From an uncultured virus (IMG/VR IMGVR_UViG_3300029977_000134) (lineage: Duplodnaviria > Heunggongvirae > Uroviricota > Caudoviricetes): DNA of 64,000 nucleotides. Below the pieces are notes generated by a model. It had not been told where the DNA came from and made no database searches. It was given only the letters and a program-made list of their open reading frames with translations. The stretch is from IMG/VR virus record IMGVR_UViG_3300029977_000134; one strand, written 5' to 3'. Position numbers and translations under genes: made by a program. Numbering within the stretch: position 1 is the first letter of the stretch; the number at the start of each line of letters is the position of its first letter. Below, one piece after another: positions 26,665 to 56,763 of this stretch.

Positions 26665-26949
26665 ATGAAAAACTATAAAAAAGCTTATATACTGTCAACA
26701 GTTCACGGCACAGTGCAGATCGGGACGGTTGTTTATTGTGTCCCGACTGGTGAAAGGTTTAAGGCTTCAATGAAAGGGCTTAAAAATTATCCCTATGTCT
26801 TGGTGGATGGGAATGGTTTTGAGGCGGCAAAAACGGCTTTACGGGTTTACGGTTCTATTGATTTATCAAGGAATTTGACAAGACGGGTTTTGAGGTGTAT
26901 AATTTATAAACTAACAAAACAAAAAGGAGGTTTAGAATGGAAAAATTGA
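26665..26949 (+). CDS. Hypothetical protein (3' end overlaps the next promoter)
   Basis: GGGGGTG RBS + ATG; C-terminus reads through promoter DNA, so it may be truncated. Confidence 0.5.
   Translation: MKNYKKAYILSTVHGTVQIGTVVYCVPTGERFKASMKGLKNYPYVLVDGNGFEAAKTALRVYGSIDLSRNLTRRVLRCIIYKLTKQKGGLEWKN
26875..26903 (+). promoter_or_regulatory. sigma70 promoter
   Basis: TTGACA-17-TATAAT; upstream TTGATTTATCAAGG. Confidence 0.9.
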
Positions 26950-27839
26950 ACAAGGTAAGTATAAAAAAGAATGAGAACCCTTTAGTGGTGATGCATAACA
27001 TCCTATCCTCTGTTTTCCCTCAAGGTGAGATCAAGTTCCGTAAGGTTAACATAACTGACTTTGTTAAAGATGATTCCTTACGCAGTAAGTTTAGTGAGCA
27101 CCCCGCCTATGTCCATAGGAACGATAAAAGGTATGCCGCAGAGTATTTAATGGACTCAACCACCTTTGAAAAACAAGACCTTATACTCACAACATCCCTA
27201 TTAGGGTTTAACATAACGGGCAAGTTTACCTTTATGGGTGAGGTCTCAAGGTTTTACATTCCTGCGGGTCTTGTATATTCCATAATTAATAATAGGATAG
27301 AGACTTCAATTCCGAAGGATGTAATTAACCTAATAGCAATAATAGATAACCCCGCTGTGGTGGTCTTTGATATGGACGGTGGTGGGGAGTATATGGGCGT
27401 TGATAAAAAGTTTTATATAGGATCTCTTACCTATCTTTTCAAAGAAAGTGGTAAATACCTTGTGGTTGCTCCGTTTAACGGTTTTGACTACAACACACCG
27501 CAAGCGAAGTCTACCGCTTTAAGGTTCTTTGAGTTTTTCCTTAATTTAACTCAATTCTTTAATGAGAATAAAAAGGTAACCCCGTTTTGCTATGAGATTT
27601 TAAAACCTAAACTCCTTACAAGACCATTAATTGAAAAGTTTTTAGGTCGTTATTATTCCGACCCTGCACACGAACACAGTTTAGGGGTGGTTGGGGCGGT
27701 AAATGTGGCTGTAAATGAGTATATAATAAATAAGGTAAATGAGGCTTACTCGAAGGCAAGGAATTCCTTTAACTTTCTTGGTCAAGACCCGATAGAGGCT
27801 TTAGAGAACTTCATTGAACTTCTAAAGGTTTTAGGTTGA
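26937..27839 (+). CDS. Paralog superfamily, subfamily C (about 300 aa)
   Basis: YSIINNRIETSIP, LRFFEFFLNLTQF and FLGQDPIEALENF shared with 32048 and 44977. Confidence 0.85.
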   Translation: MEKLNKVSIKKNENPLVVMHNILSSVFPQGEIKFRKVNITDFVKDDSLRSKFSEHPAYVHRNDKRYAAEYLMDSTTFEKQDLILTTSLLGFNITGKFTFMGEVSRFYIPAGLVYSIINNRIETSIPKDVINLIAIIDNPAVVVFDMDGGGEYMGVDKKFYIGSLTYLFKESGKYLVVAPFNGFDYNTPQAKSTALRFFEFFLNLTQFFNENKKVTPFCYEILKPKLLTRPLIEKFLGRYYSDPAHEHSLGVVGAVNVAVNEYIINKVNEAYSKARNSFNFLGQDPIEALENFIELLKVLG

Positions 27840-27884
27840 GGGGGAACTGTTATGATGGTTAAAACCGTTGAAAAATCAAGGTAT

Positions 27885-27913
27885 TTGACAATACACCCTA
27901 AAAGGTGTATAAT
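27885..27913 (+). promoter_or_regulatory. sigma70 promoter
   Basis: TTGACA-17-TATAAT; upstream CGTTGAAAAATCAAGG. Confidence 0.9.
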
Positions 27914-27951
27914 TTTAACACTAACAAAAAACAATAAAAGGAGGTGTAAAA

Positions 27952-28962
27952 ATGGCTGTGTATACCCTAAATGAAGCGAAGGAAGTGGTAAAAAAGCTCC
28001 ACCCATTGGGAATACCTATCCTCCTCAATGGTGGGACAGGTGTCGGTAAGACCTCACTTGTGAGGGAACTCTCTGAAGAGCTCGGACTCCCTCTCATTGA
28101 TATAAGGCTTGCAACAGAGCTCCCTGAAAATGTCGGCGGTGTCCCTCAGGTGGTTGACAGCTCTTACTTTATAAAGGTTCTGAATAAGGACTTCGCCCCC
28201 GCTTTTGAAAATGGGGCTATCCTATTTTTTGATGAGATTAACCGCTCTATCTCATGGGTAAGGAATGCTGCAATGAGTGTCTTCTTTGAAAGGACGCTTG
28301 GTGGAAGGAAGCTCCACCCTAACACACTTGTTATAGGTGCAACTAATATGGGGATCGACTTTAAGGACACCGATGTTCTGGATAAGGCTCTGCTTGCAAG
28401 GTTTGCTATACTGAACATTGTTACTGATGCTGAGGAGCTTGTCAATTACCTCGATGCAAGGTATCCACTTTCCGCCTCAGTTGTGGCTTCTAAACTTCAG
28501 GTTCTTTCTAACAAGCTGTATGAGGAGAACAGGTATGACCAACTTGTCCCGACCTTTACACCAAGAAATGTTGAGTTCGCCGCTAAAGTCATTGAGACTT
28601 ACCATAATGACCCACTTCTAAGAAAGATACTGTATGCGGTTATCTCTCCCGATATTGCGGATATTTTGCTTGCTGACCTTGACTTTACCACTGTTAGAAA
28701 AATCCTTGCTGGCGAGGATGTTGAGGTCGAGGATGCCAAGATACCAACCATCCTTGCGGTTATCTCTTCTATGAAGCTGAATGAGAATGAGTTTATGAAT
28801 GCTCTGAAGTTCGCTAAGAAAGTGTTTGAAAAATTCAAAGTCGAGGACAGCATAGTTGGTTTTCTTTCTAATCTTGGCAGGAAGAATAGGGAGCTTGTCA
28901 TAAAGAACATCTCGACAATAAATAAGGAATTTCCTAATTTGAAGAATGCTTTGACACTGTAA
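27952..28962 (+). CDS. MoxR-like AAA+ ATPase (copy 1)
   Basis: Walker A GGTGVGKT, Walker B LFFDEINR, sensor GATN, ALLARF, TPR. Confidence 0.9.
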   Translation: MAVYTLNEAKEVVKKLHPLGIPILLNGGTGVGKTSLVRELSEELGLPLIDIRLATELPENVGGVPQVVDSSYFIKVLNKDFAPAFENGAILFFDEINRSISWVRNAAMSVFFERTLGGRKLHPNTLVIGATNMGIDFKDTDVLDKALLARFAILNIVTDAEELVNYLDARYPLSASVVASKLQVLSNKLYEENRYDQLVPTFTPRNVEFAAKVIETYHNDPLLRKILYAVISPDIADILLADLDFTTVRKILAGEDVEVEDAKIPTILAVISSMKLNENEFMNALKFAKKVFEKFKVEDSIVGFLSNLGRKNRELVIKNISTINKEFPNLKNALTL

Positions 28963-28971
28963 GGAGGCAAA

Positions 28972-30399
28972 ATGGATATTTTGTTAGACAAAAACATAGA
29001 CATTGAAGAAGTGAGGAGGCGGACTTTACAGTTCGCCTCCTCAATGAAGAGGATGTTGGTTCTGCTTGAGAAGATGGACTTTTACTCCTTCTTCTATTTC
29101 ATCTGCGCTGAGGATTTTGACCCTAAAGTCCCGATAATGGCTATGAGTTATAGGGATATGATTTCCTTCGCTTTACCGACGGTTGTTTATGGAACTGGGC
29201 TTATACCTTTTATTGAGAAAGCCCTTGAGAGAGACCCTCACATTGCTGACAGCTTTGTAAAGGAAGTGAAGAAGGCGAGAACTGTAAGCAAAGAGAATGA
29301 AGAGTTGTTAAAGCGGTTCTTTATCTTCAGAGAACTTGTAAAGCATGAGGTAATTCATTATATTAACTTGCACTTACCAAGAACCATTGAATTTTTCAAA
29401 AAGAAAGGTTTTCAACAGATCCCTGAACCACTTTTTATGATGTCTAACATTGCGGCTGACAGTATTTGTAATATTTACCTCGACAAGAAGGTTGTTGAAA
29501 AAGTAGGGTTAGTTCCACCGCTTGACAAGGAAGTTCAACTTGAGAAGTTGCTTGAAGAACTGCTGAAAGATACCAAGTTTAAGATGGTTTTTATGGGGGG
29601 CGGTTCAGGATCAGGTAATAAAGATAACAAAGGGAATGGCGGTGGTGGGGCTGTTGAAGATTTTAAGAATGGGGATAAAGGTTTTCCCGACCTATCTTAT
29701 GATGACTTACGGGATCTTTCAAAACATGACCTTGAGAGGCTTAAGGAAGTAATGGGACAGGTGGTTGAAAAGACTATTGGGGATTACAAAAAATCTAATA
29801 AGACCATAGGCAGTATCCCTGGTGAGGTTGAGGAGACCATTAAGTGGCTTAAAAAGAAAAGGATTAAGTTTAGGATTATAGGTGATGACAACATATTTGG
29901 ATTGTTCAGGGAGGTTGAAAGAACCTATTTAGCTTATAATCCTCTGAATAGTAATAAAAATGGGCTGGTTTTCCCTTCCTATAGACCGCTTGGTGGCTTT
30001 ATAGTTGCGGTTATAGTTGATACTTCGGGTTCTATGGGTGCTGAGGAACTTGGTTATTCGCTTGACCTTATAAATGGACTTATTAAACAGGCGGAGACTT
30101 ACCTTGTAGAGATTGACACAACCATTCAACAGGTTAGAAAGGTTGGACAGGTAAAAGAAGAATTTACCTTTAAGGGTAGAGGTGGAACTTCCTTTACCGA
30201 CCTTGAGAGGTTAAATAAACTTTTACCCGCAAGGGAGGTTAAGGTTTGTATACTTCTTACGGATGGTTATGTTAATGAGTTTCCTAAACAAAACCCATTG
30301 CCTGGTGCTAAATGGATAGGTGTAACAACTTCGCAAGTCCCTAAAAACTCTCCAAGCTGGATAACCTGGTTTAAGGTTGAGGAAGTTATAGAAGATTAA
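28972..30399 (+). CDS. HExxH metallopeptidase-like + VWA domain protein (DUF2201-like, copy 1)
   Basis: KHEVIH..H, Gly-rich linker, MIDAS DTSGS, GRGGT, LTDG; follows the MoxR ATPase. Confidence 0.85.
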   Translation: MDILLDKNIDIEEVRRRTLQFASSMKRMLVLLEKMDFYSFFYFICAEDFDPKVPIMAMSYRDMISFALPTVVYGTGLIPFIEKALERDPHIADSFVKEVKKARTVSKENEELLKRFFIFRELVKHEVIHYINLHLPRTIEFFKKKGFQQIPEPLFMMSNIAADSICNIYLDKKVVEKVGLVPPLDKEVQLEKLLEELLKDTKFKMVFMGGGSGSGNKDNKGNGGGGAVEDFKNGDKGFPDLSYDDLRDLSKHDLERLKEVMGQVVEKTIGDYKKSNKTIGSIPGEVEETIKWLKKKRIKFRIIGDDNIFGLFREVERTYLAYNPLNSNKNGLVFPSYRPLGGFIVAVIVDTSGSMGAEELGYSLDLINGLIKQAETYLVEIDTTIQQVRKVGQVKEEFTFKGRGGTSFTDLERLNKLLPAREVKVCILLTDGYVNEFPKQNPLPGAKWIGVTTSQVPKNSPSWITWFKVEEVIED

Positions 30400-30418: not shown

Positions 30419-31081
30419 ATGAAAAGCTTTAAACTCGATTTTCAAAACTTGGTGGGGGGAGCAGTTGCTCTGCTCCCCCTTATGGAAGATAAAAATATTC
30501 CTTCAGTGATAAACATTAAAAACCTTCAATACCTTGTAATTCCAAAAGCTTTATTATTCTTTGATTATTTCACTAAACCTATTTTTAAATCCCCTAAAAT
30601 TTCAGAGAGTTCTATTATCACCATTGAAGACTTTAACACTTACGATATTGTCAAGGTTGAAAAAGCTCATATAAACCTTTTTTCAGCTGTAAAAATGATA
30701 TTAAGTATTGACCTTTTTGTTGACCCTTCCGATAGGTCTTTTTTAGTGGGAACTTTAAAATCACACCCGATCACTGAAGTGTTCCCCCCTTATAGATATT
30801 TAACAGAGGTTTTACCTTTCGACCTCAGCAATAAAGCGGATAATAGAATTTTAAATGTTGTCAGTTCTTCACTTCAGGTTATTTCATTTTCAACCGCTTT
30901 ACTGACTTTCCTTTATACTATGTATAACCTGGATGGCGGTATTAAGATTATAAGCAACACCGATGGGAGCGGGAGGGCTGTTGATTATATATATGCGGTA
31001 AGGGATAGGTTAAAGGTTGTAGGCGGGAATTTCATTGAGGCGGTAGAGAATTTAAGGATCTTACACACTGTCTTATTATAA
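30419..31081 (+). CDS. Paralog superfamily, subfamily B (about 220 aa)
   Basis: LP(F/Y)DL, T.LYT.YN and G.NFIEAVENL motifs shared with 45898-48640 and 51976. Confidence 0.8.
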   Translation: MKSFKLDFQNLVGGAVALLPLMEDKNIPSVINIKNLQYLVIPKALLFFDYFTKPIFKSPKISESSIITIEDFNTYDIVKVEKAHINLFSAVKMILSIDLFVDPSDRSFLVGTLKSHPITEVFPPYRYLTEVLPFDLSNKADNRILNVVSSSLQVISFSTALLTFLYTMYNLDGGIKIISNTDGSGRAVDYIYAVRDRLKVVGGNFIEAVENLRILHTVLL

Positions 31082-31146: not shown

Positions 31147-31959
31147 ATGGCTTTAGTAAAAATAGGCGAGACGGAAGGTATAGAATTGCAAGATGTTATA
31201 CATTTATACAATTTTTTAGGTAATGTCTTAAAGTGGGATAGGGAGGAATTTAGAAAGTATTCAAAGAACAAGTTTCCCTGGTGTTCAAGTTTGACCTGTC
31301 AGGTTATGATGCATCCAAAGTTTATACTTCTTCCAAAGTATACTTATTCACATCTTCCCTATGGAGTTATGGAACTTGTTAGAAAAGGGGTATTAGATAT
31401 TAAGTTTGCGGATAAGATAGAACCTAAATACTTTACGACCTATGATATTTACCGTTTTGAACCTTCGGAAGACCCTTGCGACCTTGTAGGTGGGTTTGAG
31501 ATTGAACTCAGGTTTAACCCTTCAGATGAAGATAAAGAAAAGGTGGAATTGTCAAGTATGTATACGGGGATAATTGGTTATGAGGTAAAGGGGGATTGCA
31601 AGGATAAAAGGATATGTCGGGGCAACTTTTACCTCGAGTTCTTTGGTTATAGAAACTGGATTATTAACCTTAAAAGTGGTGTCGAGGTATTGTCAATGGT
31701 TATTGGTGAGGGTTACTCTAAATATAGAAGGGATGGCTTTTATTCACATAAAAACAAGGTTTCAAAAGGGGCTGAAGATGTTGAATATACCCTTTTAAAC
31801 CTTCTTAACCTTACCTATATTCTTTATACTGAAGGGTTCGATAAAAGTATACCTGAATATAAACTCTTTGAGCCGATTATTAAGCTGTTCAGGGAATTTG
31901 GCAACACTTTCGACAAGGTTATAGCTTCTATACGGGCTTTTTCACACATAATAGACTGA
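31147..31959 (+). CDS. Paralog superfamily, subfamily A1
   Basis: Close paralog of 39925 and 50277 (LSSMYTGI, GNFYL, LFEP..GNTF). Confidence 0.85.
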   Translation: MALVKIGETEGIELQDVIHLYNFLGNVLKWDREEFRKYSKNKFPWCSSLTCQVMMHPKFILLPKYTYSHLPYGVMELVRKGVLDIKFADKIEPKYFTTYDIYRFEPSEDPCDLVGGFEIELRFNPSDEDKEKVELSSMYTGIIGYEVKGDCKDKRICRGNFYLEFFGYRNWIINLKSGVEVLSMVIGEGYSKYRRDGFYSHKNKVSKGAEDVEYTLLNLLNLTYILYTEGFDKSIPEYKLFEPIIKLFREFGNTFDKVIASIRAFSHIID

Positions 31960-31988: not shown

Positions 31989-32017
31989 TTGACAATCCAA
32001 GCTTGACAGTGTATAAT
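31989..32017 (+). promoter_or_regulatory. sigma70 promoter
   Basis: TTGACA-17-TATAAT. Confidence 0.9.
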
Positions 32018-32977: not shown

Positions 32978-33739
32978 ATGAAAGTTGAAAAAACTGGACA
33001 GGTTGTAAAGGTGGACATAAATTACACACCTAACCTTCATAAGTTTATTGACTCGATAAGCTGGAATGTGGAAGATTTCATTAACCTTGCTGGGAACAAA
33101 GTAAGTCCAAGCTCTCGCATAGAACTTCAGGTTGTTATTGAACCTGACTTTCTTTTACTTCCCGCTTATAAGTATTTACCTATACCTAATGAGTTTGTTT
33201 TATCTAAAATTGAGTTTGAACCTAAGTATGAAGACAGGATAAAAATTGAAAACCTTTCAACTTTCGAGGTATGCAAAGTTGTAAATAATTTTAATGATGT
33301 TAACATAACAATTGAGGTAGGGCTTCATTTAAGTTCTGGGATTGTAAAACCATGGATGGTAGGGGTTAACTTTGAATTCGGACCTAAAAATGATTATAGG
33401 TGGTTCTTTGAATACAGTTATGCAAGTTCGCTTGATACAAGTTTTGTACGGTATGAGGATTATTTTAAAACTTTAAGGTGGGCAAGGGGTAGAAGGTATT
33501 CGAATTTTGCTCGGCTGGGTTGCAATTCTAATGTATTTCACAACCTTTATAGTATTGAAAAACTCGCCTTTGCTTTTACAAACTTCCTTTATACTCTATA
33601 CATTCTGGACACTTCTAAAGATAAGGCTTCCTTTGAATACAACCTTTTTAAACCTTATGCTGACCTTTTACGGAGTTATGGGAATACCTTTGAGGGGGCT
33701 TTGTCAATTGTAAATGAGGCAATGGTTCTTATGGTTTAA
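32978..33739 (+). CDS. Paralog superfamily, subfamily A
   Basis: MKVEKTG, LLP.Y.Y, ENLS.F, LRWARGR.YS, NFLYTLY, YGNTFE. Confidence 0.85.
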   Translation: MKVEKTGQVVKVDINYTPNLHKFIDSISWNVEDFINLAGNKVSPSSRIELQVVIEPDFLLLPAYKYLPIPNEFVLSKIEFEPKYEDRIKIENLSTFEVCKVVNNFNDVNITIEVGLHLSSGIVKPWMVGVNFEFGPKNDYRWFFEYSYASSLDTSFVRYEDYFKTLRWARGRRYSNFARLGCNSNVFHNLYSIEKLAFAFTNFLYTLYILDTSKDKASFEYNLFKPYADLLRSYGNTFEGALSIVNEAMVLMV

Positions 33740-33757: not shown

Positions 33758-34528
33758 ATGAAAGTTGAAAAAACAGGTAAGGTGGTAGTTGTAAAACCTG
33801 AAGATGTAATACCGCTCCATAGGTTTATGTATAGACTTATGGAACTTGACCCCGATTTTTACCTTAACACTATAGGTAAAGTTAGAGAACCTAATTCAAA
33901 GTTAAGCATTGACCACATAGCTCCGACTAAACCCCGATACCTTTTAATTCCATTTTATAGGTATTTTCCGCTTCCTGCGGATGAGGTTGTAGAAAGGCTT
34001 GGTGTTGAATTTCAGACTGAAGATAAGATAAAGCTTGAGAACCTTTCAGTTTTCAATGTGTATAAGGTTATTGAAGGTGGGGATAACAGTATTGATGTTT
34101 TCCTTGAGGTTTTGTTTGAACTTGGACACAAGATGGAGAAGGCGAGGGTATGGGGAACTTGGATTTACTTTATAATATACGGTAAAGAGAATGACAGGCG
34201 GCATTATAATGGAGTTGCAACAGATGTAGGGCTTTCATTTTATAGCGATTATTTAAGGACTTTAAGGTGGGCGAGGGGTAGAAAGTATTCGAGTTTTTCT
34301 TATGGGAATAATACGGGTTCAAAGGTTATCAATAGTATTCACAATTTAGGGACTAATCTATTCGCACTTGTAAATCTTTTTTATAATCTATACATTGGTG
34401 ACTGGCTTGAGGTTAGTGAGACTAATTATAAGCTTATTAAACCTTTTTCCGACCTTTTACGGAGTTACGGCAATACCTTTGAAGAAGTTTTATCAACTAT
34501 AAGGGAAGTTACGGTTATTGTAGATTAA
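33758..34528 (+). CDS. Paralog superfamily, subfamily A
   Basis: Same motifs as 32978. Confidence 0.85.
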   Translation: MKVEKTGKVVVVKPEDVIPLHRFMYRLMELDPDFYLNTIGKVREPNSKLSIDHIAPTKPRYLLIPFYRYFPLPADEVVERLGVEFQTEDKIKLENLSVFNVYKVIEGGDNSIDVFLEVLFELGHKMEKARVWGTWIYFIIYGKENDRRHYNGVATDVGLSFYSDYLRTLRWARGRKYSSFSYGNNTGSKVINSIHNLGTNLFALVNLFYNLYIGDWLEVSETNYKLIKPFSDLLRSYGNTFEEVLSTIREVTVIVD

Positions 34529-36245: not shown

Positions 36246-36569
36246 TTACATAACCTCGACCTTCATTATCTTATAGGGTAAGCTTTTTATCTCCTCTTCA
36301 GTTAAAACCTTACCCTCTTCAAGCCTCTTTAGGAGCTGGAATACTATTAATACATCACCTTTTTGAAGCTTTACTTCAATTCTGTTGAAAAGAACGGGAA
36401 TGTCAAGTAGTTTAGAGAGAATGTCAGCGGTTGCCTGGTGACCTACCGCACTGATAAAACCACCTGATAGGATGTTTTTTGCCTCCTGTAAGGAGATTTC
36501 AGAGACTTTTAGTTGAACTTCAGAAGCATTTAGCATATTTAGAGAGAATGCATTACCAAGATATACCAT
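36246..36569 (-). CDS. acrIII-1: Anti-CRISPR viral ring nuclease AcrIII-1 (DUF1874 / STIV B116 / SIRV1 gp29 family)
   Basis: YLGNAFSLNML, SAVGH (catalytic His), NR.E.KL, RLEEGKVLT match the family signature (SIRV1 gp29: YLANAFSINML..SIGH..NRVEIKL..RLEEGKILT). Confidence 0.92.
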   Translation of the reverse strand: MVYLGNAFSLNMLNASEVQLKVSEISLQEAKNILSGGFISAVGHQATADILSKLLDIPVLFNRIEVKLQKGDVLIVFQLLKRLEEGKVLTEEEIKSLPYKIMKVEVM

Positions 36570-48653: not shown

Positions 48654-49400
48654 ATGGAGATATTAACAATTAACCCTTATAACATCACTCTCCTATATAC
48701 ATTCTTGAGGAACTTACTTGTTATGAATGAAAAGGACTATGATAACTTCACGGATTTAAAGCTCAAGAATTCAAGGTATAACACCAATAGTATTGAGGTA
48801 ACTCCACATAACTTTTTAATACCTGTGCGGGCATATTCAACCTACACTTTTGAGTTTTTGGTAGAGAATTTAGGTGTAAGTGTTGAAAAACAGGAATGCG
48901 TTGGAGTTGAAAGTCTTTCACAGTTTACGGTTTACAACCTATCGAGTAGTGGTAAGGATATAGAAGCTAAAATTAATTTTAGACTTTCACCATCCCACTC
49001 GGAGCCTTGGAGAAATGTAGCAAAGCTTGAAGGAATAGATATTATTCTTGAGACATTGAAAGATAATACCATTAAGCGACAAGAATTTAGTAGAACCTTT
49101 GACAGGTATGACGATTCAGAGATAGCCAGAATGGATTCTAAACTTAGAATGTTTAGTTTAGCTAAAGGTAAGAAGTTTTCAAACATAAGTAAAAGGAATA
49201 ACAGAGTTGCATTCGGTATTTTAGATTTTGAGGAAGACTGGTTTATAATCACCAATGCACTTTATACCCTTTATTCGGGATTTAAGGGCTATGATATTGA
49301 TAGCAAAGCTTTAGAACCATTTGCGGATTTTGTCAGGGGTCTTGGGAATACCTTTGAAGAAGCTTTAGAAAAAGTAGTAGCAATTTTAATGCCATTATAG
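48654..49400 (+). CDS. Paralog superfamily, subfamily A
   Basis: FLIPV..YS, AKGK.FS, NALYTLY, LGNTFEEAL. Confidence 0.8.
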   Translation: MEILTINPYNITLLYTFLRNLLVMNEKDYDNFTDLKLKNSRYNTNSIEVTPHNFLIPVRAYSTYTFEFLVENLGVSVEKQECVGVESLSQFTVYNLSSSGKDIEAKINFRLSPSHSEPWRNVAKLEGIDIILETLKDNTIKRQEFSRTFDRYDDSEIARMDSKLRMFSLAKGKKFSNISKRNNRVAFGILDFEEDWFIITNALYTLYSGFKGYDIDSKALEPFADFVRGLGNTFEEALEKVVAILMPL

Positions 49401-49413: not shown

Positions 49414-50187
49414 ATGGGAACTTTAATTAAAACTGGAAAAGTTGTAGAAATAGAACCAGACAAGGTTGTTCATTTTTACAGATTCCTGAAAAACTTCGCA
49501 AACTGGGATTTAAACGATTTTGTGTCTCAATATAAGAGAGTAGGGGGAACTGGAACCATTTTTCCAGTTTCTACTATTCTTACAACTGTTTTAATTCCTG
49601 AATATAGGTATTCATACATTCCAAAGTTTTTTAAGTATTACACTGATATCAAGCGGGCGGATAAAATAGATTACAAGAACTTTTCTCGTTTCAACATTTA
49701 CAAAATTGACATTAATGATATAGGCGGTCCTCATATTGAATTGAGGGTTGAGTTTGCATATGATAAATGGATCAACAAAGTAAGAGTCACAGGAGTTGAA
49801 CTTGAACTAACACACTATTCTCGACCTCGTATGCCTCATAGTTATAAGTTTAAGACACTTATTTTACCTGACAATACTTTTGTAAAAAAGCTTATGGAAG
49901 GTTTGGAGTTATTGAGGTCTTTAAAGGGTAAGGCGTATTCACAATTACCTGAAGAACAGAGAAAACAAGTTGCTGAAAGTTTTTGTGCTATTGAAAATAA
50001 TATGGTTATTTTTGCTAATTTGTTTTATCCTTTGTATATGGGGGAACTTGAGTGGTATGGTTCCACTGGTGAAGTAGGTAGATGGGCTTTTTCATCAGTT
50101 TATGAATTCCTCCGTCAATATGGAGCTGACTTCGATGATGCTCTACGGACTATAGAGGGGGTTTCAAGATTGACTTGGGCGATATAA
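49414..50187 (+). CDS. Paralog superfamily, subfamily A
   Basis: LIKTGKVV, LIPEYRYS, YGADFDDAL. Confidence 0.8.
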   Translation: MGTLIKTGKVVEIEPDKVVHFYRFLKNFANWDLNDFVSQYKRVGGTGTIFPVSTILTTVLIPEYRYSYIPKFFKYYTDIKRADKIDYKNFSRFNIYKIDINDIGGPHIELRVEFAYDKWINKVRVTGVELELTHYSRPRMPHSYKFKTLILPDNTFVKKLMEGLELLRSLKGKAYSQLPEEQRKQVAESFCAIENNMVIFANLFYPLYMGELEWYGSTGEVGRWAFSSVYEFLRQYGADFDDALRTIEGVSRLTWAI

Positions 50188-50219: not shown

Positions 50220-50248
50220 TTGACAATCTACCTTTCAGGCTTTATAAT
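50220..50248 (+). promoter_or_regulatory. sigma70 promoter
   Basis: TTGACA-17-TATAAT. Confidence 0.9.
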
Positions 50249-50276: not shown

Positions 50277-51089
50277 ATGGCCTTAGTAAAAACAGGTGAA
50301 TTAACAGAAATAAACTTGGAGGATGTCGCTCATCTTTATAATTTCTTCAGTGATGTTTTAAGATGGGACAGAAAAGAGTTCGAGAAATACTCAAAAGCCA
50401 AGTTTCCATGGTGTCTAAATTCGGACTGCATAATTGACATACATCCGAAGTTCATACTTCTTCCAAGATTTACCTACTCGTATCTTCCTTACTGCGTTAC
50501 GAAGCTTGTAAAAATGGGGAAACTAAATATCGAACTTATGGACAAAATAGAACCCAAATACTTTACAACTTATGATATTTACAGGTTTGAACCTTCCGAA
50601 GATCTTTGCGACCTTATAGGTGGAATTGAGGTTGAACTCAGACTCAAGCGGTCAAGGGAAGATGAAGAAAAAATAGAACTTTCGAGTATTTACACTGGGA
50701 TTATCGGGTATGAAGTTGAAGAAAGTTGTAAACATAAAGAAATATGTAGAGGTAATTTCTATCTTGATTTTCTGAATTATAAAAAATGGCTCACTAACAT
50801 TAGAGACGGTATTAAAACCTTATCAGAAGTTATTGGTGAAGACTGTTCTAAACATAGAGACAGTGGGTTTTACTCACAACCAAATAAGGTTTCAAGGCGT
50901 ATTTATAATATCGAACTTACATTTATAAACTTCCTCAACCTTGCTTATGTTCTTTATACTGAAGGGTTCGACAAAAGTATACCTGAATACATACTCTTTG
51001 AACCAATTACCAAGATGCTCAGGGAACTTGGTGACACTTTTGAAGGGGTCATAGCTTCTATACGGGCTTTTTCTCTCATAATGGGATGA
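50277..51089 (+). CDS. Paralog superfamily, subfamily A1
   Basis: ATG 50277; closest paralog of 31147. Confidence 0.85.
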   Translation: MALVKTGELTEINLEDVAHLYNFFSDVLRWDRKEFEKYSKAKFPWCLNSDCIIDIHPKFILLPRFTYSYLPYCVTKLVKMGKLNIELMDKIEPKYFTTYDIYRFEPSEDLCDLIGGIEVELRLKRSREDEEKIELSSIYTGIIGYEVEESCKHKEICRGNFYLDFLNYKKWLTNIRDGIKTLSEVIGEDCSKHRDSGFYSQPNKVSRRIYNIELTFINFLNLAYVLYTEGFDKSIPEYILFEPITKMLRELGDTFEGVIASIRAFSLIMG

Positions 51090-51118: not shown

Positions 51119-51147
51119 TTGACTTTCCACACTTCTTATCATATAAT
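51119..51147 (+). promoter_or_regulatory. sigma70 promoter
   Basis: TTGACT-17-TATAAT; upstream ..TAAATCAAGG. Confidence 0.85.
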
Positions 51148-51175: not shown

Positions 51176-51955
51176 ATGAAACTTGAAAAAACAGGAGAGG
51201 TCATTGAAATAAATCCCGAATATATTGTTCCATTACACAGGTTCTTAACAGATTTTGTAAAGTGGAACCCCGATGAATACTTAAAATCCGTTGCTAAAGA
51301 GGATGTAAGGTGGCGTCCTGTTGGTAGCCCTGCTGTTGAGTATTTAGATTACAAAGCGGTCATTAAACCGAAATCCCTCTTATTCCCCGTTTACAGGTAT
51401 TCTTCAATTCCAAAACATACTGTTGCTGAAAGATTAGGTGTTGAGTTTGAAAGAGACGAACGCATAAAAATTGAAAACCTTTCACTCTTCAACATATACC
51501 GTATTGTTGAGGATGTTGACCCTGAAGTTGAGATTACAATTTCTACCGAAACCTTACCTGAAATTACACAAAGTAATGAAAAGATAGCAAGGCTTTTCGA
51601 CATAACTATTAATTTCAGAATTGGTTCCAAGAATGACTATTACTGTGTCATAATAATATGGAGTATCTGGTATAACAATTACCTGAAAACTTTACGATGG
51701 GCAAGGGGTAGAAAGTATTTGAACTTTGCAAGTAAAGGAGTTCTCCATTCCAAAGTTTTGAGCCATCTATACGCTATTGAAAACGGTATGTTCGTTTTCC
51801 TGAACTTTCTTTATGCATTATACAATGAACATTTTGAAGATGACACGGTTGAAAGTAGACTTTTTAAACCCCTCTCGGATCTTTTGCGAAGCTACGGGAA
51901 TACCTTTGAGGATATGTTGTCAACTATAAAAGAGATAGTTGTTTTGGCTGGATAA
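51176..51955 (+). CDS. Paralog superfamily, subfamily A
   Basis: MKLEKTG, LRWARGRKY, DLLRSYGNTFE. Confidence 0.85.
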   Translation: MKLEKTGEVIEINPEYIVPLHRFLTDFVKWNPDEYLKSVAKEDVRWRPVGSPAVEYLDYKAVIKPKSLLFPVYRYSSIPKHTVAERLGVEFERDERIKIENLSLFNIYRIVEDVDPEVEITISTETLPEITQSNEKIARLFDITINFRIGSKNDYYCVIIIWSIWYNNYLKTLRWARGRKYLNFASKGVLHSKVLSHLYAIENGMFVFLNFLYALYNEHFEDDTVESRLFKPLSDLLRSYGNTFEDMLSTIKEIVVLAG

Positions 51956-51975: not shown

Positions 51976-52677
51976 ATGATTGATAACAAGACAAAGGAGT
52001 TAAAGATGGGACTCGAATTCAGATTTGAACTTCCAAGAGTTCTACCAACTGCTGGTGTTATTTATAAGATGATAGATAATCTACCAAATACTGAGACTGT
52101 TAAAATATGTGGAATTCCATATGTTTTACTTCCGAAGGCAGCAAGATATTTTGATGAAGACACAAAGAATATTTTTGGTGTTCCAACTGAAAAAAAGAAA
52201 ATCTTTACACTTGACGATTATGAGATCCTTGAAGTTGTGAAAGTTGATAACCCTGAAGATGCAAGACTTTATATATTTAAGCTGCCTGGTGGTAATGGAA
52301 TTTATAATATTGCTGTGATTATAAAAGATATTTATCATTTTAATGCTACTTGCAGTATTTTTGATGTTTGGTGGCTTGAAGAAGATAAATTCAAGTTTGT
52401 TATGGAAAGACTTCCTTTCAACATGAAGAATGCAGATGAGAAAGAAAAATCAGATTTCATATGGGCTTCTGCCCATATTGCTCGTCGCTCAATAGCAGTT
52501 GCTACCCTTCTTTACACTTTTATCAATTTCGATTTTGAAGGTGTAAACCCACAGCTAAGGTTATGTAGTGAAAATTCTCGAGATTATGCGATTTCTGTAA
52601 AGGAAAAAATTAAGAGTCTTGGAAGTAATCTTACTGAGGCAATTGAAAATCTTGAAGTATTAGACCATTTCATATAA
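51976..52677 (+). CDS. Paralog superfamily, subfamily B
   Basis: LPFN, TLLYTF.N, LGSNLTEAIENL (start may be 52006). Confidence 0.8.
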   Translation: MIDNKTKELKMGLEFRFELPRVLPTAGVIYKMIDNLPNTETVKICGIPYVLLPKAARYFDEDTKNIFGVPTEKKKIFTLDDYEILEVVKVDNPEDARLYIFKLPGGNGIYNIAVIIKDIYHFNATCSIFDVWWLEEDKFKFVMERLPFNMKNADEKEKSDFIWASAHIARRSIAVATLLYTFINFDFEGVNPQLRLCSENSRDYAISVKEKIKSLGSNLTEAIENLEVLDHFI

Positions 52678-52691: not shown

Positions 52692-53453
52692 ATGAAAGTA
52701 AGAAAGACGGGAAAATCCTTAAATATAAACCTTGCAGACACGATTAAGCTTTTGAGATTTCTTGAAAACTTTATGTTCTTTGGTATAGTAGATGGATACC
52801 TCAGCTATTTAGGTGAAAAATTAGTTCCATTGTCTTCAATTAAAAGTGATACACTTACCATTTACCCTAAGTATGTATTGGTTCCAACAACTCAGTATTA
52901 CCTTTCTTTCATTGATGTAGAAGCAAACCTTGAAGGAGTTAGAATTGTGCGTAAGCGTGATATAGAGATTGACAAACCTGTTCAATTTGATGAGTATGAG
53001 TTTATTGAATATTCTTGGGGTCCATGGTCTAAAGTTGAAATTGGCTTTCATATTTCATTTTATGAAAATGAAAAGAAAATAGGAGTGGGTGGAGTATCAA
53101 TTAAAGTTAAGTCTTATACTGGGTTTGGCACTTATTATTATACATTGTATTTCAATAAAGATTTTGCTACGTTGAGGTATGTTGAGGAAGGTTTAAAAGC
53201 GTTTATAGAGTCAAATGGAAAGAAGTTTGAAGAGGTGGAACGGGAAAGTCCTGCCGCAGCACTTAGAATAGGGGTTCTTGAAGATGCTATGTTTTTGTCT
53301 CTTAATGTTCTCTATTCTATTTACAATGGGGTAATTAAAGAGGATACTACTGAATACAAGATTTTTGCTCCATTTACAAAAATCCTTCATAGTTATGGTA
53401 AAGATTTTGAAGAAGTGTTGTCAATTATAAAAGAATTTTCGATGATTTTGTGA
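52692..53453 (+). CDS. Paralog superfamily, subfamily A
   Basis: Close paralog of 36909. Confidence 0.85.
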   Translation: MKVRKTGKSLNINLADTIKLLRFLENFMFFGIVDGYLSYLGEKLVPLSSIKSDTLTIYPKYVLVPTTQYYLSFIDVEANLEGVRIVRKRDIEIDKPVQFDEYEFIEYSWGPWSKVEIGFHISFYENEKKIGVGGVSIKVKSYTGFGTYYYTLYFNKDFATLRYVEEGLKAFIESNGKKFEEVERESPAAALRIGVLEDAMFLSLNVLYSIYNGVIKEDTTEYKIFAPFTKILHSYGKDFEEVLSIIKEFSMIL

Positions 53454-53481
53454 TAATTTTTAAAACAAAAAGGAGGGTAAA

Positions 53482-54258
53482 ATGGAAGAAATAGAGAAGA
53501 AAATAATAAAAATGAACCAAGTGGAAATTCTTGGGTTTAGTAGATTTCTTCGTAATGCTTTCGAATTAGGTTTTGATGGGTATATTAATTCGCTGAAAAA
53601 GGTTGTGAAGTCGAAGGAAGTTTATCCAATGATATTAAAAATTGAGATTATACCTAACTTTCTACTTGTTCCAGTTTACAGTTATTTCTTTTTCAAAGAC
53701 CCAATTATAGAACACTTTGGGTTCAAGGTTGAGTATAAAGATGAGATACACAATGAAAACCTTTTACAGTATGGGATTTACAAGCTTCCAGACAATGCTG
53801 ACAGGAGAATAGTATTACACCTTATACCTTACCCAGAAATGGTTCAAGGTGTGAGATTGGAACAGTTATCAGTGGAAATTAACCTCAAAGCTAAGGATAG
53901 AGAGGATATTAAAGATACAACTCTCAGATTATTTGTTTCACAAAGAATTCTTAATGCAGCTGATATACATTCAAGAATAAAAACCTTAAATGAATTACAA
54001 GGTAAAAGTTTTGATGAACTTCTTCACTCAGAGCCCCGTGAGGTTTTTACAACGGTTCACTATTTTGAACAGAGAATGTTTGTCATTGTCAATCTTCTCT
54101 ATACTTTGTATACAGGTGAGTATAATGTAAAACTTGATGGAGAAGGTCCAAGAAGTAAACATAAGGTTCTTATTCCCGTTGTTGAGCTTCTGAGAAGCTA
54201 TGGCAATGACTTTCAAGAGGTATTAGATTCTATAAGGATAGCTTCAGTATTTATATAA
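53482..54258 (+). CDS. Paralog superfamily, subfamily A
   Basis: Close paralog of 37704. Confidence 0.85.
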   Translation: MEEIEKKIIKMNQVEILGFSRFLRNAFELGFDGYINSLKKVVKSKEVYPMILKIEIIPNFLLVPVYSYFFFKDPIIEHFGFKVEYKDEIHNENLLQYGIYKLPDNADRRIVLHLIPYPEMVQGVRLEQLSVEINLKAKDREDIKDTTLRLFVSQRILNAADIHSRIKTLNELQGKSFDELLHSEPREVFTTVHYFEQRMFVIVNLLYTLYTGEYNVKLDGEGPRSKHKVLIPVVELLRSYGNDFQEVLDSIRIASVFI

Positions 54259-54270
54259 AGGAGGTGTAAA

Positions 54271-54954
54271 ATGGAAGTAAGAATAAACCCAGAAGATGTA
54301 ACAATTTTCATCAGGTTTGTGAGGAACTTCTTTAAGTTTGATGAAGATAAACTAATAGCTCTTCGTAATCCAAAGTTTTACGAATTTTCAATCTTTCCAA
54401 CCAGTCTATTAGTTCCAGTTTACAGATATTCCCCAACACCTTTGGGTAAAAAACTTGGAATTGAACTTAAATACGAAGATAAAATAAACATTGAAAATCT
54501 TTCATATTTCAGAGTTGTCAAACTCCCTGAAAATTCTGACATAAAGATTACCTTAAGCCTCGAGTTAACTGAACGTGATAATGAAGCAATAATCTGGGGA
54601 GTAAGGGTTAACCTTAATGACCCGAGTTACCGTTTCAAAGCATTGGTTGACGGAAGTCTGGATGATAATGGTTTTAACGAAGACTTAAAAACCGTACGGT
54701 GGGCAAAGGGTAGAAGTTACTCAAGACATTCAAAGAGTTTTGTTTCTAAAGTTACAGGGAGCATACTCCGTATAGAGGAATACCTGTTTGCTCTTTCTAA
54801 TCTGTTATATGTTGTGTATAGCGGGGAATACCGCAAGGATAAGAAGGAAGCCGAACTTCTCGCTCCGTTTACAGAGATTTTGAAGAGTTATGGTAATACT
54901 TTTGAAGATGCGTTGTCATCTATAAAAATAGCTACACTGTTTGCATTTCAGTAA
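54271..54954 (+). CDS. Paralog superfamily, subfamily A
   Basis: Close paralog of 38489. Confidence 0.85.
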   Translation: MEVRINPEDVTIFIRFVRNFFKFDEDKLIALRNPKFYEFSIFPTSLLVPVYRYSPTPLGKKLGIELKYEDKINIENLSYFRVVKLPENSDIKITLSLELTERDNEAIIWGVRVNLNDPSYRFKALVDGSLDDNGFNEDLKTVRWAKGRSYSRHSKSFVSKVTGSILRIEEYLFALSNLLYVVYSGEYRKDKKEAELLAPFTEILKSYGNTFEDALSSIKIATLFAFQ

Positions 54955-55063
54955 TGAGTATGCAATGTTCTATTTTAACCAACCCGTTTGGCAAAACCGA
55001 TCGGTTTTGCCGATTTGTTTCGGTAAAAACCGACAATTTAACATAAATTGTATAGGAGGTAAT

Positions 55064-55267
55064 ATGAAAGATATAGAAAAGTATAAAGAGGAACAAAAGG
55101 CTCTGGTATTACACCACCAGAGCGGTACATCTTTTGTAGAAAAGAAAACCGAAAAAATGGGTATTGCAAGTGCAAATATTTCTGGAAAAGCGTGTATTCC
55201 GTTTACAAAAAATAATAAATCCATTGAAAAACATGGAGGCAAAAATGGAAGTCTTAACCAAGACTAA
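55064..55267 (+). CDS. Small hypothetical protein
   Basis: AGGAGGT RBS + ATG 55064; 67 aa. Confidence 0.45.
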   Translation: MKDIEKYKEEQKALVLHHQSGTSFVEKKTEKMGIASANISGKACIPFTKNNKSIEKHGGKNGSLNQD

Positions 55268-55943
55268 AAACATAATAAAAGTGGACCCGAGAGATATTGT
55301 TCACTTTGCTCGTTTTATAAGGGATTTTATAGCTTGGAAAAGAGAAGAAAGAGATAAGGCAGACATAAACCTGTATGTGTCTTGGGCTGAGCCTTCGGTC
55401 ATTCTTGTCCCTGTGTACAGGTATTCCGCCTTTTCCTTGGGTGGAAAGTTAATACCTGACCTCAAATATAAAGACATTATAAAACTTGAAAACCTTTCCT
55501 ACTACAGACCTTTTACCCTACCAAAAAAGAGTAAGGTTAGATTTAAGGTAACCGTTGATGATGGTCCCGAAATTATGAGAGCCAGTTCCTTAGGAATTAG
55601 CGTTAGTCACCCAACGATTTATGGTTATACAATGTACCTTGAACCCGATGACATTGATATGGAATTTTTTGAAAGGGATTTTAGAATACTGAGTTTGGCT
55701 GAAGGTAAGGATTACTCAAAATCTTTAGATTTTGCTAACTCGGAAATCATAGATTGTTTACATCACCTTGAAGACAGTATGTTTATCGTTCTCAGCTTTC
55801 TGTATATGATTTATAGTGGTGGGTATACTGACTATGCCGAAAACAAGTTTTTCTTTCCATTTACTGAAATTTTTCGAAGCTACGGTGAAACTTTCGAGGA
55901 GGCTTTGTTTGTTGCGAAAGAAGTGTCAATGTTTATTGGGTAG
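55245..55943 (+). CDS. Paralog superfamily, subfamily A
   Basis: ATG 55245 after GGAGG; LVPVYRYS, ENLS, YGETFEEAL. Confidence 0.85.
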   Translation: MEVLTKTKNIIKVDPRDIVHFARFIRDFIAWKREERDKADINLYVSWAEPSVILVPVYRYSAFSLGGKLIPDLKYKDIIKLENLSYYRPFTLPKKSKVRFKVTVDDGPEIMRASSLGISVSHPTIYGYTMYLEPDDIDMEFFERDFRILSLAEGKDYSKSLDFANSEIIDCLHHLEDSMFIVLSFLYMIYSGGYTDYAENKFFFPFTEIFRSYGETFEEALFVAKEVSMFIG

Positions 55944-55965
55944 AATTGAAACGGAGGAGTGAAAA

Positions 55966-56763
55966 ATGGGTTCCTTAATTAAGACAGGTGAAGTAGTAAA
56001 AGTAGACCCGAGGGATATTATTTACCTTTACAGATTTATAAGAGAGTGTATAACCTGGAACTTGGATGATTACCATAACTTCTTAGACAAAGTAGGCAAG
56101 AGGAACTCTGATTATTACCAAGCCACCCTTACACTCAATTTTTTATTAGTACCTAAATTTAGGTATTCTACGCCTCATGAAAAGATTAAAAATACTGAAG
56201 TTCAGCAAGCGGATAAAGTTAAATACGAAAATTTTTCCAACTTTGATGTCTATCAATTTGACCCTAACTCTAATGGAGAAATCTTGGAAATTAAATTTGA
56301 ATCAGGAATTAGACATAGTAACACCAGGGCGGTAGCCAGAGTTTGGTGGTTAGATCTTGTTGTAGTTGAAACTGGATTTCATTGTTCAGTAGGGAACACT
56401 GATATAAATGCCGCCAGCGTTGAATACTGTCATTCTGGGACGCTTATTCATGAAACCAATAGTGATATAGAAGACCTTCAAGGATATTTGAGAACCTTAA
56501 GATGGACACAGGGTAAAAGTTATCTGGAACTTTCCAAACGTTCCAAACCTAATGAAACTGGAGTTGTATACAAAATAAGACACTTTGAGGAAAATTTCTT
56601 CCTTTTTGTAAACTTCCTTTACACTTTATATACAGGTGGTTTTAAAAAGGATAGCCCTGAACACACACTTTTTGAACCGTTTACCGAACTTTTAAAGACT
56701 TATGGTAATACCTTTGAGGAAATGTTGTCAACTGTGAAAGAAGTAATGATGTTTGTTGAGTAG
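55966..56763 (+). CDS. Paralog superfamily, subfamily A
   Basis: LIKTGEVV, NFLYTLYTG, YGNTFEEML. Confidence 0.85.
   Translation: MGSLIKTGEVVKVDPRDIIYLYRFIRECITWNLDDYHNFLDKVGKRNSDYYQATLTLNFLLVPKFRYSTPHEKIKNTEVQQADKVKYENFSNFDVYQFDPNSNGEILEIKFESGIRHSNTRAVARVWWLDLVVVETGFHCSVGNTDINAASVEYCHSGTLIHETNSDIEDLQGYLRTLRWTQGKSYLELSKRSKPNETGVVYKIRHFEENFFLFVNFLYTLYTGGFKKDSPEHTLFEPFTELLKTYGNTFEEMLSTVKEVMMFVE

Follow-up and report, generated by a model that had tools for sequence, protein, structure and literature searches.

A diverged array of orphan paralogs interleaved with duplicated AAA+/VWA pairs in an uncultured phage: a candidate family of early, host-directed proteins

Main finding

A 30-kb section (positions 26937 to 56763) of an uncultured virus of the Caudoviricetes (IMGVR_UViG_3300029977_000134; the window analyzed here spans 64,000 nucleotides) is largely given over to 28 small orphan genes of three families, A, B, and C. 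Our preferred reading, which we hold tentatively, is that the array is an expanded early family of host-directed, putative binding proteins that serve counter-defense or host takeover. It would represent a multigene family specific to its lineage and of ancient duplication, whose soluble, non-enzymatic products, expressed early with the host RNA polymerase, act on the host cell.

Organization of the array

All-versus-all blastp of 42 ORFs separated 19 A, 6 B, and 3 C genes into three closed groups with no cross-group match at an E value of ≤1e-3, and together with frame analysis this upheld the counts of the preliminary description, including its one frameshifted A gene. Family genes occupy 71% of the 29,827 bp (∼21 kb), i.e., most of the stretch, as had been claimed, and two chaperone-like AAA/VWA pairs occupy a further 17%. 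The reported size range of 216 to 305 amino acids (aa) is close to that of the ORFs as listed, 216 to 308 aa; four listed starts lay too far upstream and were moved, on promoter and alignment evidence, to 36909, 44977, 50277, and 55245.

Genes are on the plus strand unless indicated otherwise. The array opens with C1 (26937 to 27839; 300 aa) behind a consensus promoter (26875 to 26903), followed by the first AAA+ ATPase (MoxR-like and N4 gp24-like; 27952 to 28962; promoter, 27885 to 27913), its HExxH-plus-VWA (DUF2201) partner (28972 to 30399), a B gene (30419 to 31081; 220 aa), and an A gene (31147 to 31959; 270 aa) that is 65% identical to that at 50277 to 51089 and 51% identical to that at 39925 to 40734. 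C2 (32048 to 32965; 305 aa; promoter, 31989 to 32017) precedes A genes at 32978 to 33739, 33758 to 34528, 34554 to 35320, and 35358 to 36098. The third of these changes frame at a T9 run (35169 to 35177), its tail being encoded in 35144 to 35320, and has an unbroken 255-aa relative (P0013; 96.7% identity over 211 aa). An AcrIII-1/DUF1874 homologue on the minus strand (36246 to 36569) is accompanied by a small hydrophobic ORF (36593 to 36766) with a consensus promoter (36817 to 36789). Three A genes follow (36909 to 37682, with the start corrected from 36765; 37704 to 38471; and 38489 to 39169), then a small paralog (39351 to 39785; promoter, 39293 to 39321) with relatives at 23217 to 23537 and 43772 to 44083, and another A gene (39925 to 40734; promoter, 39867 to 39895).

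The second AAA+ ATPase (41003 to 42022; promoter, 40947 to 40975) and its HExxH-plus-VWA (DUF2201) partner (42009 to 43637), which carries a Gly/Lys/Gln-rich insert, are followed by the small paralog at 43772 to 44083 (start corrected), a terminator-like hairpin (44107 to 44131), a divergent A gene (44158 to 44877), C3 (44977 to 45882; start corrected; promoter, 44919 to 44947), and a B gene (45898 to 46560). Three further B genes (46651 to 47301, 47303 to 47956, and 47966 to 48640) stand behind a promoter at 46593 to 46621 and lead into A genes at 48654 to 49400, 49414 to 50187, 50277 to 51089 (start corrected; promoter, 50220 to 50248), and 51176 to 51955 (promoter with one mismatch, 51119 to 51147). 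The last B gene (51976 to 52677) precedes A genes at 52692 to 53453, 53482 to 54258, 54271 to 54954, 55245 to 55943 (start corrected), and 55966 to 56763, the copy modeled below.

The paralogs are mutually 22 to 65% identical yet are kept as distinct lineages across contigs. Clustering at 60% identity gave 77 clusters from 134 pooled family sequences, a pool that was not de-duplicated and in which six database proteins repeat window ORFs; each window paralog fell into its own cluster except those at 31147 and 50277. The order of the A genes from 52692 to 54954 repeats that of their closest paralogs at 36909 to 39169 (43, 34, and 56% identity), which points to an old segmental duplication. Elsewhere on the contig, portal and protease genes lie ∼7 kb before the array start, and several paralog sets exist besides A, B, and C. 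Acidic proteins encoded at 24172 and 59377 are 61% identical, two methyltransferases and three small paralogs are present, and a further family occupies the minus strand at 20053 to 21860.

Relationships among families A, B, and C

Profile comparison indicates that A and B are true homologues: their profiles align with an hhalign probability of 95.4 (E value of 1.8e-8; 168 columns), rising to 96.0 (4.1e-9; 68 columns) when the profiles comprise 62 A and 17 B sequences, and tail-only HMMs of the two match each other at 6e-5 to 4e-3 across 1,292 ORFs. The similarity of C to B is confined to 18 to 21 tail residues (E values of 0.05 to 0.09), and C and A profiles do not match (0.48 to 0.63). In the same 1,292 ORFs, the 14 best out-of-family matches of the C tail HMM included no B protein and one A fragment (E value of 0.22), and the best out-of-family matches of the A and B tail HMMs included no C protein. 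The proposal of a single 28-member superfamily is therefore supported for A and B and not for C, which the tail HMMs link to neither and which may be a second early family of separate evolution within the array. The original description of the tail motifs and of the N-x-L-Y-x-L-Y helix holds.

Fold and conservation of the A family

The predicted structure of the A protein encoded at 55966 to 56763 (AlphaFold2 [AF2]; pLDDT, 82.4; pTM, 0.84) has conserved parts at both ends, an N-terminal element and a C-terminal unit of three helices, together with a beta-sheet that varies. This confident model has no structural relative in PDB or BFVD, and no virion protein matches its fold at a Z score above 4.3; the AF2 model of C is unusable (pLDDT, 34). 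Pfam searches gave no family for A, B, or C at an E value of ≤0.01, no family hit more than one of the 18 A members scanned at ≤10, and the three families have neither a PHROG family nor a PHROG structural match. The claim of novelty is borne out by these searches.

Sequence entropy in A is lowest at residues 211 to 220 and 241 to 260 and highest at residues 101 to 170. Positions conserved in ≥80% of 62 A sequences hold only F, L, P, Y, I, G, E, or N; His, Cys, Ser, and Asp are absent from this set, leaving no conserved residues of catalytic type, and no transmembrane segment is predicted. We infer that the proteins bind rather than catalyze. The A/B scaffold would combine an N-terminal beta-alpha-beta-alpha element with a C-terminal three-helix unit that carries the N-x-x-Y-x-x-Y and G-x-x-F-E-E helices, and it would present the fast-evolving beta-sheet (approximately residues 100 to 170) as a putative target-binding surface, with separate paralogs directed at separate, probably host, targets. 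The tail is, in the model, the last helix of the integral three-helix unit and is well packed (pLDDT of ∼96), so that it could be plain fold core rather than a docking peptide.

Distribution and selection

Searching 1.84 billion representatives returned 67 family matches, all in one metagenomic phage clade. No family match was found in 185,579 species genomes, and the A protein at 55966 to 56763, the sole A protein searched against a phage collection of 50,697 records, had no match there. Across 13 pairs of window genes and relatives from A, B, and C, dN/dS was 0.13 to 0.63 (0.10 for the AAA gene), and by this measure the orthologues are under purifying selection. The regional values for 17 independent A pairs (N terminus, 0.31; middle, 0.52; linker, 0.23; C terminus, 0.21) identify the variable sheet as the fastest-evolving part and, like the entropy profile, agree with the earlier account of variable bodies on a conserved C-terminal end. 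Pooled dN/dS is <1 in every A region, an arms race thus not being demonstrated, and the sheet could just be a mutation-tolerant region.

Promoters and the AcrIII-1 homologue

Matches to TTGACA-N17-TATAAT with at most one mismatch number 25, against 0.89 expected by chance. Inside the array there are eleven perfect promoters and one with a single mismatch, and one more lies just upstream (13 in total); the structural module (1 to 20 kb) has only 2 of the 25, each deviating at one position. A leader and a strong AGGAGG site are common to the array promoters, and promoter-leader modules of ∼75 nt recur. From the promoter consensus we infer that the array is expressed early.

Cleavage of cyclic tetra-adenylate is a biochemical property expected of AcrIII-1/DUF1874 members. 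The minus-strand ORF at 36246 to 36569 matches essentially the full PF08960 (STIV_B116-like) profile (E value of 7.9e-28; 97 bits against a cutoff of 26; ORF residues 2 to 100 and profile positions 1 to 100 of 101) and may accordingly be assigned to this group, which is described as a viral ring nuclease (10.1101/778746). It is 95% conserved in the same place in two related contigs (L001 and L014). Although it is a neighbor inside the array and not a member of A, B, or C, it fits, together with the consensus sigma-70 promoters, the early-looking setting with an embedded anti-CRISPR that had been noted.

AAA+/VWA pairs

The two AAA+/DUF2201 pairs are complete, as first reported, and their copies are 58% and 43 to 45% identical, respectively. 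In Pfam, ATPase copy 1 matches AAA (43.6 bits; cutoff, 21.2), AAA_3 (31.7; cutoff, 27), and AAA_5 (30.1; cutoff, 22), and copy 2 matches AAA (41.3) and AAA_5 (31.6), its AAA_3 score of 24.3 lying under the cutoff of 27; both match phrog_1297 (E values of 1.6e-35 and 7.3e-33). The VWA partners match PF09967 (DUF2201) at 44.8 and 40.1 bits (cutoff, 26.4). The MIDAS is intact (D-T-S-x-S, G-G-T, and T-D-G), and it and the H-E-x-x-H-x-x-x-x-H motif are invariant in all five aligned sequences; the DUF2201_N metallopeptidase family (PF13203) was hit by copy 2 only, at 16.0 bits and under its cutoff of 23.2. AAA homologues occur in 532 records of the 50,697-record phage collection (tblastn), and proteins annotated "N4 gp24-like" match the window ATPases at 26.8 to 32.4% identity among the 25 matches listed. 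The VWA protein is very divergent, with matches in 3 phage records at an E value of ≤1e-5.

Of 22 related contigs, 13 have an AAA and/or VWA homologue adjoining the array. The remaining nine carry neither: seven are shorter than 5 kb, the L006 contig breaks off within its array, and L003 (11,050 bp) and L007 (11,129 bp), although long, span only the array and upstream genes. Because all 22 contigs belong to one phage clade, this adjacency may be mere synteny. In the window, a B gene and then an A gene come after the first pair, the successive gaps measuring 19 and 65 bp and holding no consensus promoter, as suspected of a cotranscribed unit; in 11 of the 13 contigs, however, the pair is encoded on the other strand and converges with the array, and cotranscription is therefore not a conserved feature. 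In five contigs (L004, L005, L010, L011, and L015), the pair is followed by homologues of the window genes at 61.2 to 62 kb. The adjacency is left unexplained by the host-binder reading on its own.

Alternative explanations

The array might instead be a library of adaptors or substrates for the phage MoxR-VWA-metallopeptidase, which we regard as unlikely, although it can coexist with host binding. The HExxH or VWA protein would be the putative partner on which the three-helix unit of A and B (perhaps also the C tail) docks, with a conserved Glu possibly filling out the MIDAS, and the AAA+ ring would remodel, or the peptidase cleave, either the paralog itself or a host protein held by its sheet. 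The adjacency, the close spacing behind the first pair, duplication of the pair within the array, the intact HExxH and MIDAS motifs, and an acidic position (E251) conserved in 84% of 62 A sequences all favor such docking, as does the account in PMC7159879, in which VWA domains bind peptides via the MIDAS and MoxR-vWA pairs can have a variable third partner. Against it stand the convergent orientation in most relatives and the genes that follow the pair in five of them, the restriction to one clade, in which synteny is not independent co-occurrence, the many AAA-bearing records in a collection where the one A protein searched has none, and the modeling of the tail as an integral helix. A programmable remodeling or proteolysis hub would ask for more, and we consider it decidedly improbable: two MoxR-VWA-metallopeptidase machines would be served by at least 25 interchangeable putative adaptors of a previously unseen fold, with a common three-helix dock and a variable sheet presenting differing host proteins (e.g., a defense component) for unfolding or cleavage, making the array the early-acting equivalent, in a virus, of the MoxR-vWA ternary conflict systems of bacteria.

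It is hardly likely, too, that the genes serve phage-phage competition or superinfection exclusion, or are largely dispensable, duplicated cargo that recombination between the repeated promoter modules maintains, with no paralog-specific host targets. The contig does hold several other paralog sets, the repeated promoter-leader modules could drive unequal recombination, the best orthologues of adjacent window genes are found on separate contigs (dS, 0.15 to 1.8), and one A copy is frameshifted. However, each of the 13 orthologue pairs that could be measured in A, B, and C has a dN/dS of <1, and the paralogs persist as distinct lineages, which argues for retained, individual functions. Most improbable, in our judgment, is a packaged or assembly role, in which the C-terminal unit would be a targeting or assembly signal and the polymorphic set would be loaded into the virion, perhaps injected, or chaperoned by the MoxR-vWA-peptidase. 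According to PMC7824862, MoxR-vWA with an N-terminal metallopeptidase has been proposed to act in virion assembly and processing in group 2.2 jumbo phages, and a work cited there gives MoxR-vWA a role in tail development of the Acidianus two-tailed virus; in addition, the array begins ∼7 kb beyond the portal and protease genes. Yet the array sits in a separate block of perfect host-type promoters of which the structural module has none, PHROG and fold searches gave no structural or virion match, and 28 divergent copies are unexpected for a stoichiometric structural part.

Comparison with known systems

Phage genomes are compact, and the upkeep of 25 to 28 diverged orphan copies, ∼21 kb of a 75,317-bp contig, therefore implies strong, sustained selection. 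If the copies are host-directed binders, they would constitute a ready-made catalogue of counter-defense or takeover specificities on a new scaffold, and phages would then have their equivalent of the multigene families known from large DNA viruses of eukaryotes, e.g., the African swine fever virus (ASFV) MGF families and poxvirus host-range expansions. These, like the array, are tandem, anciently diverged paralogs that fill a large share of a variable region, with a repertoire that varies between related viruses; they differ in virus realm, proteins, and hosts. Among the papers listed by a literature search, we found no phage multigene family of comparable size.

The VMAP-type MoxR-vWA ternary conflict systems described in PMC7159879 likewise join MoxR and vWA to a third protein that is conserved at its C-terminal end and highly variable elsewhere, and that source also reports fast-diverging proteins, partnered with a metallopeptidase, in which a C-terminal peptide stays conserved. 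There they are cellular defense systems with one VMAP per locus and fused effector domains, whereas the window is of a phage and has 25 to 28 separate small proteins with no recognizable effector domain; the likeness is one of logic only.

MoxR-vWA pairs are widespread in phages, N4 gp24/gp25-like proteins included, and their own role is only proposed; if the array proteins work with the adjacent AAA+/VWA-peptidase, they would give a first functional handle on it. The window ATPases resemble those of the N4 gp24/gp25-like pairs through Pfam AAA/AAA_5 and phrog_1297, and their partners have the same architecture, an N-terminal HExxH and a C-terminal VWA, as that described for group 2.2 jumbo phages in PMC7824862. 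What sets the window apart from these phage pairs is that its pair is duplicated, is embedded among 28 orphan paralogs, and includes a very divergent VWA protein.

Composition of the array and relationship of its families

All-versus-all blastp of 42 ORFs resolved three closed groups of 19 (A), 6 (B) and 3 (C) genes, reproducing the counts of the preliminary description of the array (26937 to 56763). Each gene matched 13 to 18 other members within A, 5 within B and 2 within C, and no match between groups was found at an E value of ≤1e-3. Family genes occupy 71% of the 29,827 bp, and two AAA/VWA pairs, each consisting of a MoxR-like AAA+ ATPase and an HExxH/VWA partner, occupy another 17%. The tail motifs and N-x-L-Y-x-L-Y helix were present as described. 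Four start codons (genes are named by start coordinate) were moved downstream, to 36909, 44977, 50277 and 55245, on the basis of promoter positions and alignment. The reported frameshift in one A gene was located in gene 34554, which switches frame at a T9 homopolymer (35169 to 35177), the conserved tail being read in another frame (35144 to 35320). An intact 255-aa relative was found, and the frameshift could reflect misassembly, pseudogene formation or switching by slippage. A third paralog family, of small proteins (106 to 144 aa) with a coiled-coil-like N terminus, has copies at 23217 to 23537, 39351 to 39785 and 43772 to 44083, every one behind a separate consensus promoter; the array itself encloses two of them, which flank the second AAA/VWA pair.

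The proposal of a single 28-member superfamily was supported for A and B but not for C. Profiles of the window copies alone aligned A with B over 168 columns (hhalign probability, 95.4; E, 1.8e-8), and profiles of 62 A and 17 B sequences aligned over the C-terminal 68 columns (probability, 96.0; E, 4.1e-9). HMMs built from the last 26 residues of A and B likewise recovered members of the other family (E, 6e-5 to 4e-3 among 1,292 ORFs), and by these profile comparisons A and B are homologous. Similarity of C to B was confined to 18 to 21 tail residues (E, 0.05 to 0.09), even with 20 C sequences, and no similarity of A to C was found by profile comparison, including these 20 sequences; the tail HMMs gave no link of C to A or B among the matches listed for the 1,292 ORFs. 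A glycine lies 18 to 19 residues from the C terminus in A, B and C alike, and the C tail resembles that of B by eye, a likeness that did not exceed chance in the tests run. The AlphaFold2 model of C (pLDDT, 34) was unusable. Homology of the A and B profiles, together with no link of C beyond a short tail, supports a 25-member A+B superfamily and a separate 3-member C family.

Structure and conservation of the A proteins

The A model (55966 to 56763, built from 18 paralogs; pLDDT, 82.4; pTM, 0.84) has an N-terminal strand-helix-strand-helix element, a middle multistranded β-sheet with a disordered loop at 137 to 148, and three C-terminal helices (200 to 223, 231 to 245 and 250 to 263). The tail corresponds to the last helix and the preceding glycine turn (pLDDT about 96) and, in the model, is an integral part of the three-helix unit rather than a floppy peptide. 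Entropy across 62 A sequences was highest at 101 to 170 and lowest at 211 to 220 and 241 to 260, which bears out the description of divergent middles with a shared C-terminal tail. Residues kept in at least 80% of these sequences (F24, L61, P63, Y67, I85, F93, G183, E208, N216, Y219, Y222, P238, G247, F250 and E251) include no catalytic-type His/Cys/Ser/Asp set. Transmembrane segments are absent from all copies, and their pI values span 4.9 to 9.1.

Searches with the A model, whose rows cover mainly residues 36 to 220 and barely touch the N-terminal 35 and last 45 residues, recognized no fold in the PDB with Foldseek (best E, 0.12), found none of 48,161 chains at a Z of ≥5 with VIA-align (best, 4.3) and reached a best E of 0.074 in BFVD. 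PDB searches by sequence gave one match for A (E, 0.38) and four for C (E, 0.1 to 0.31), all judged to be chance. Pfam and PHROGs contained no family for the array paralogs, and no Pfam family recurred among 18 A members at an E of ≤10. An ESM Atlas lead linking A to the ApeA N-terminal domain (0.90; 160 to 171 shared features) fell within the tool's stated chance range, had no Pfam backing and was rejected; the Atlas returned nothing usable for C. The families, originally described as unknown, are thus new at the sequence level and without a recognizable fold, and no description of them was found in the literature on DUF2201 in phages or on tandem arrays of paralogs among early phage genes.

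Promoters and neighboring genes

TTGACA-N17-TATAAT, with at most one mismatch, occurs 25 times in the window, against 0.89 expected; 19 matches are perfect, and 23 fall in the interval from 21.9 to 61.4 kb. The array contains eleven perfect sites and one with a single mismatch, with a further site just upstream at 26875, whereas the structural module has only two, each with one mismatch. The promoters share an upstream element, a conserved ACTAACAAAACAGGAGG leader and often a TG-extended −10. They form a repeated module of about 75 nt, at 23 sites from 21900 to 61400 (e.g., 24111, 27885, 31989 and 46593), in which a CCTTGATAAAT-like upstream element is followed by TTGACAAT, the TG-extended TATAAT and the ACTAACAAAACAGGAGG leader; recombination or a common regulator may act on this module. 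These consensus promoters point to a bacterial host. Of the early promoters proposed previously, the host-type sites are present in the array, but early transcription by the host polymerase is something that we infer from the promoters. Terminator-like sites were not enriched (18 versus 15.9 expected). In the window phage, a B gene and then an A gene come after the first AAA/VWA pair, with gaps of 19 and 65 bp and no consensus promoter in between, an arrangement consistent with the cotranscription suggested for these genes.

The anti-CRISPR gene noted inside the array (36246 to 36569, minus strand, with its own consensus promoter) encodes a full-length match to PF08960 (STIV_B116-like, DUF1874), a family reported as the AcrIII-1 ring-nuclease anti-CRISPR (10.1101/778746), and is predicted to share that activity. 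Two related metagenomic contigs (L001 and L014) encode a protein 95% identical to it at this position, and the flanking A genes there are less conserved. A small hydrophobic ORF (36593 to 36766, minus strand; 84 to 88% identity in the same contigs) lies between the minus-strand promoter and this gene.

Genes for a tape-measure-like protein (1199 to 8653; phrog_167; E, 1.2e-10), a portal (13047 to 14858) and a prohead-protease-like protein (18232 to 19731) lie upstream, and the virus is therefore a tailed phage; the 2,484-aa tape-measure-like protein implies a very long tail. The window proteins are assigned to a metagenomic contig of 75,317 bp. Two DNA methyltransferase genes (57111 to 59275) lie downstream of the array, as do, just beyond, those for S-adenosylmethionine decarboxylase (62872 to 63285; PF02675; E, 2e-40) and an actin-like protein N-terminal domain (63330 to 63998; PF17989; E, 7.5e-9). 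Two paralogous proteins with 61% identity (24172 to 24657 and 59377 to 60012), each behind a consensus promoter, bracket the early region; the second has a long C-terminal tail rich in Asp and Glu, and a homologue adjoins an A gene in contig L018. A further paralog set (20053 to 21860, minus strand) has two minus-strand consensus promoters at 21918 to 21999 and homologues in contig L017; its 250-aa protein (20617 to 21369) contains the 131-aa unit encoded at 21465 to 21860 in duplicate (33% identity; E, 2e-17 and 1e-10).

Distribution and evolution

The A profile retrieved 67 proteins at an E of ≤0.001 from 1.84 billion representatives; 65 had a blastp match to window A proteins and 6 were the window's own. 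The ten A clusters examined had 1 to 3 members each, all metagenomic and unnamed or "hypothetical." Database proteins numbered 20 for C and 7 for B. Megablast against 50,697 phage records gave no DNA-level relative of 40900 to 44000, scans of viral contigs with C and two database relatives (P0003 and P0024) as queries gave no relatives, and neither did a scan of single genomes representing 185,579 species. Three DNA sequencing runs contained just a small share of the sequence words (0.07 to 0.11). One metagenome scan yielded 22 contigs, each with an A array; B genes also occur on 8 of them and C genes on 2.

Window paralogs share 22 to 65% identity. Many have counterparts 62 to 89% identical on other contigs, and the duplications are therefore older than the divergence of these phages. 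Gene triplets at 36909 to 39169 and 52692 to 54954 are in the same order (identities of 43%, 34% and 56%), which indicates segmental duplication. The 134 pooled family sequences, a redundant set in which six database proteins duplicate window ORFs, formed 77 clusters at 60% identity. The dN/dS ratios for 13 A/B/C orthologue pairs were 0.13 to 0.63 (AAA, 0.10); by region, 17 independent A pairs gave 0.31 for the N terminus, 0.52 for the middle sheet, 0.23 for the linker and 0.21 for the C terminus. Judged by these ratios, the array members are genuine genes kept by purifying selection, the middle evolving faster, and none of the ratios points to positive selection.

AAA/VWA pairs and interpretation

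Both AAA/VWA pairs (27952 to 30399 and 41003 to 43637) are present, as first described. Each ATPase hits phrog_1297 as well as Pfam AAA and AAA_5 (copy 1 also AAA_3), the partners match DUF2201 (VWA-like), and the H-E-x-x-H and D-x-S-x-S/T/D MIDAS set are invariant in all five aligned sequences. The second VWA protein (42009 to 43637) carries a low-complexity Gly/Gln/Lys/Glu-rich insert at about residues 215 to 300, between the HExxH region and the VWA domain, where the L001 protein has an Asn/Gly/Ala-rich insert.

In 13 of the 22 contigs the array has an AAA and/or VWA homologue beside it, which in 11 lies on the opposite strand, convergent on the array; five of these 11 continue with homologues of window genes at 61.2 to 62 kb. 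Among the other nine, seven are <5 kb, L006 stops inside its array, and two are long (L003, 11,050 bp; L007, 11,129 bp covered) but contain only the array and upstream genes. All 22 belong to one clade, and the adjacency is therefore conserved synteny rather than independent co-occurrence. Homologues of the AAA turn up in 532 phage records, several with an N4 gp24-like annotation. A tblastn search of this collection (50,697 records) with one A protein gave no match.

We tentatively interpret the array, at somewhat less than an even chance, as an expanded early family of nonenzymatic, host-directed binding proteins on a new scaffold. A reading that can coexist with this one, and that we consider unlikely though far from negligible, is that the paralogs serve the MoxR-VWA-metallopeptidase as adaptors or substrates; VWA MIDAS sites are described as binding peptides, and MoxR-vWA systems as sometimes including a variable third partner (PMC7159879). 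A role in competition between phages, or none beyond that of dispensable cargo, is less probable for the array. We give the least credence to packaged or assembly proteins, for which the jumbo-phage metallopeptidase-vWA/MoxR pair, proposed to act in virion assembly (PMC7824862), provides a precedent.

Host-directed binding remains our preferred reading, and the adaptor or substrate role is the most interesting one. For a phage, the array is unusually large. Accessory genes are known to expand within particular lineages. If the A and B paralogs dock on the AAA/VWA machine via their common C-terminal unit, each presenting a different host protein, the array would be categorically new.
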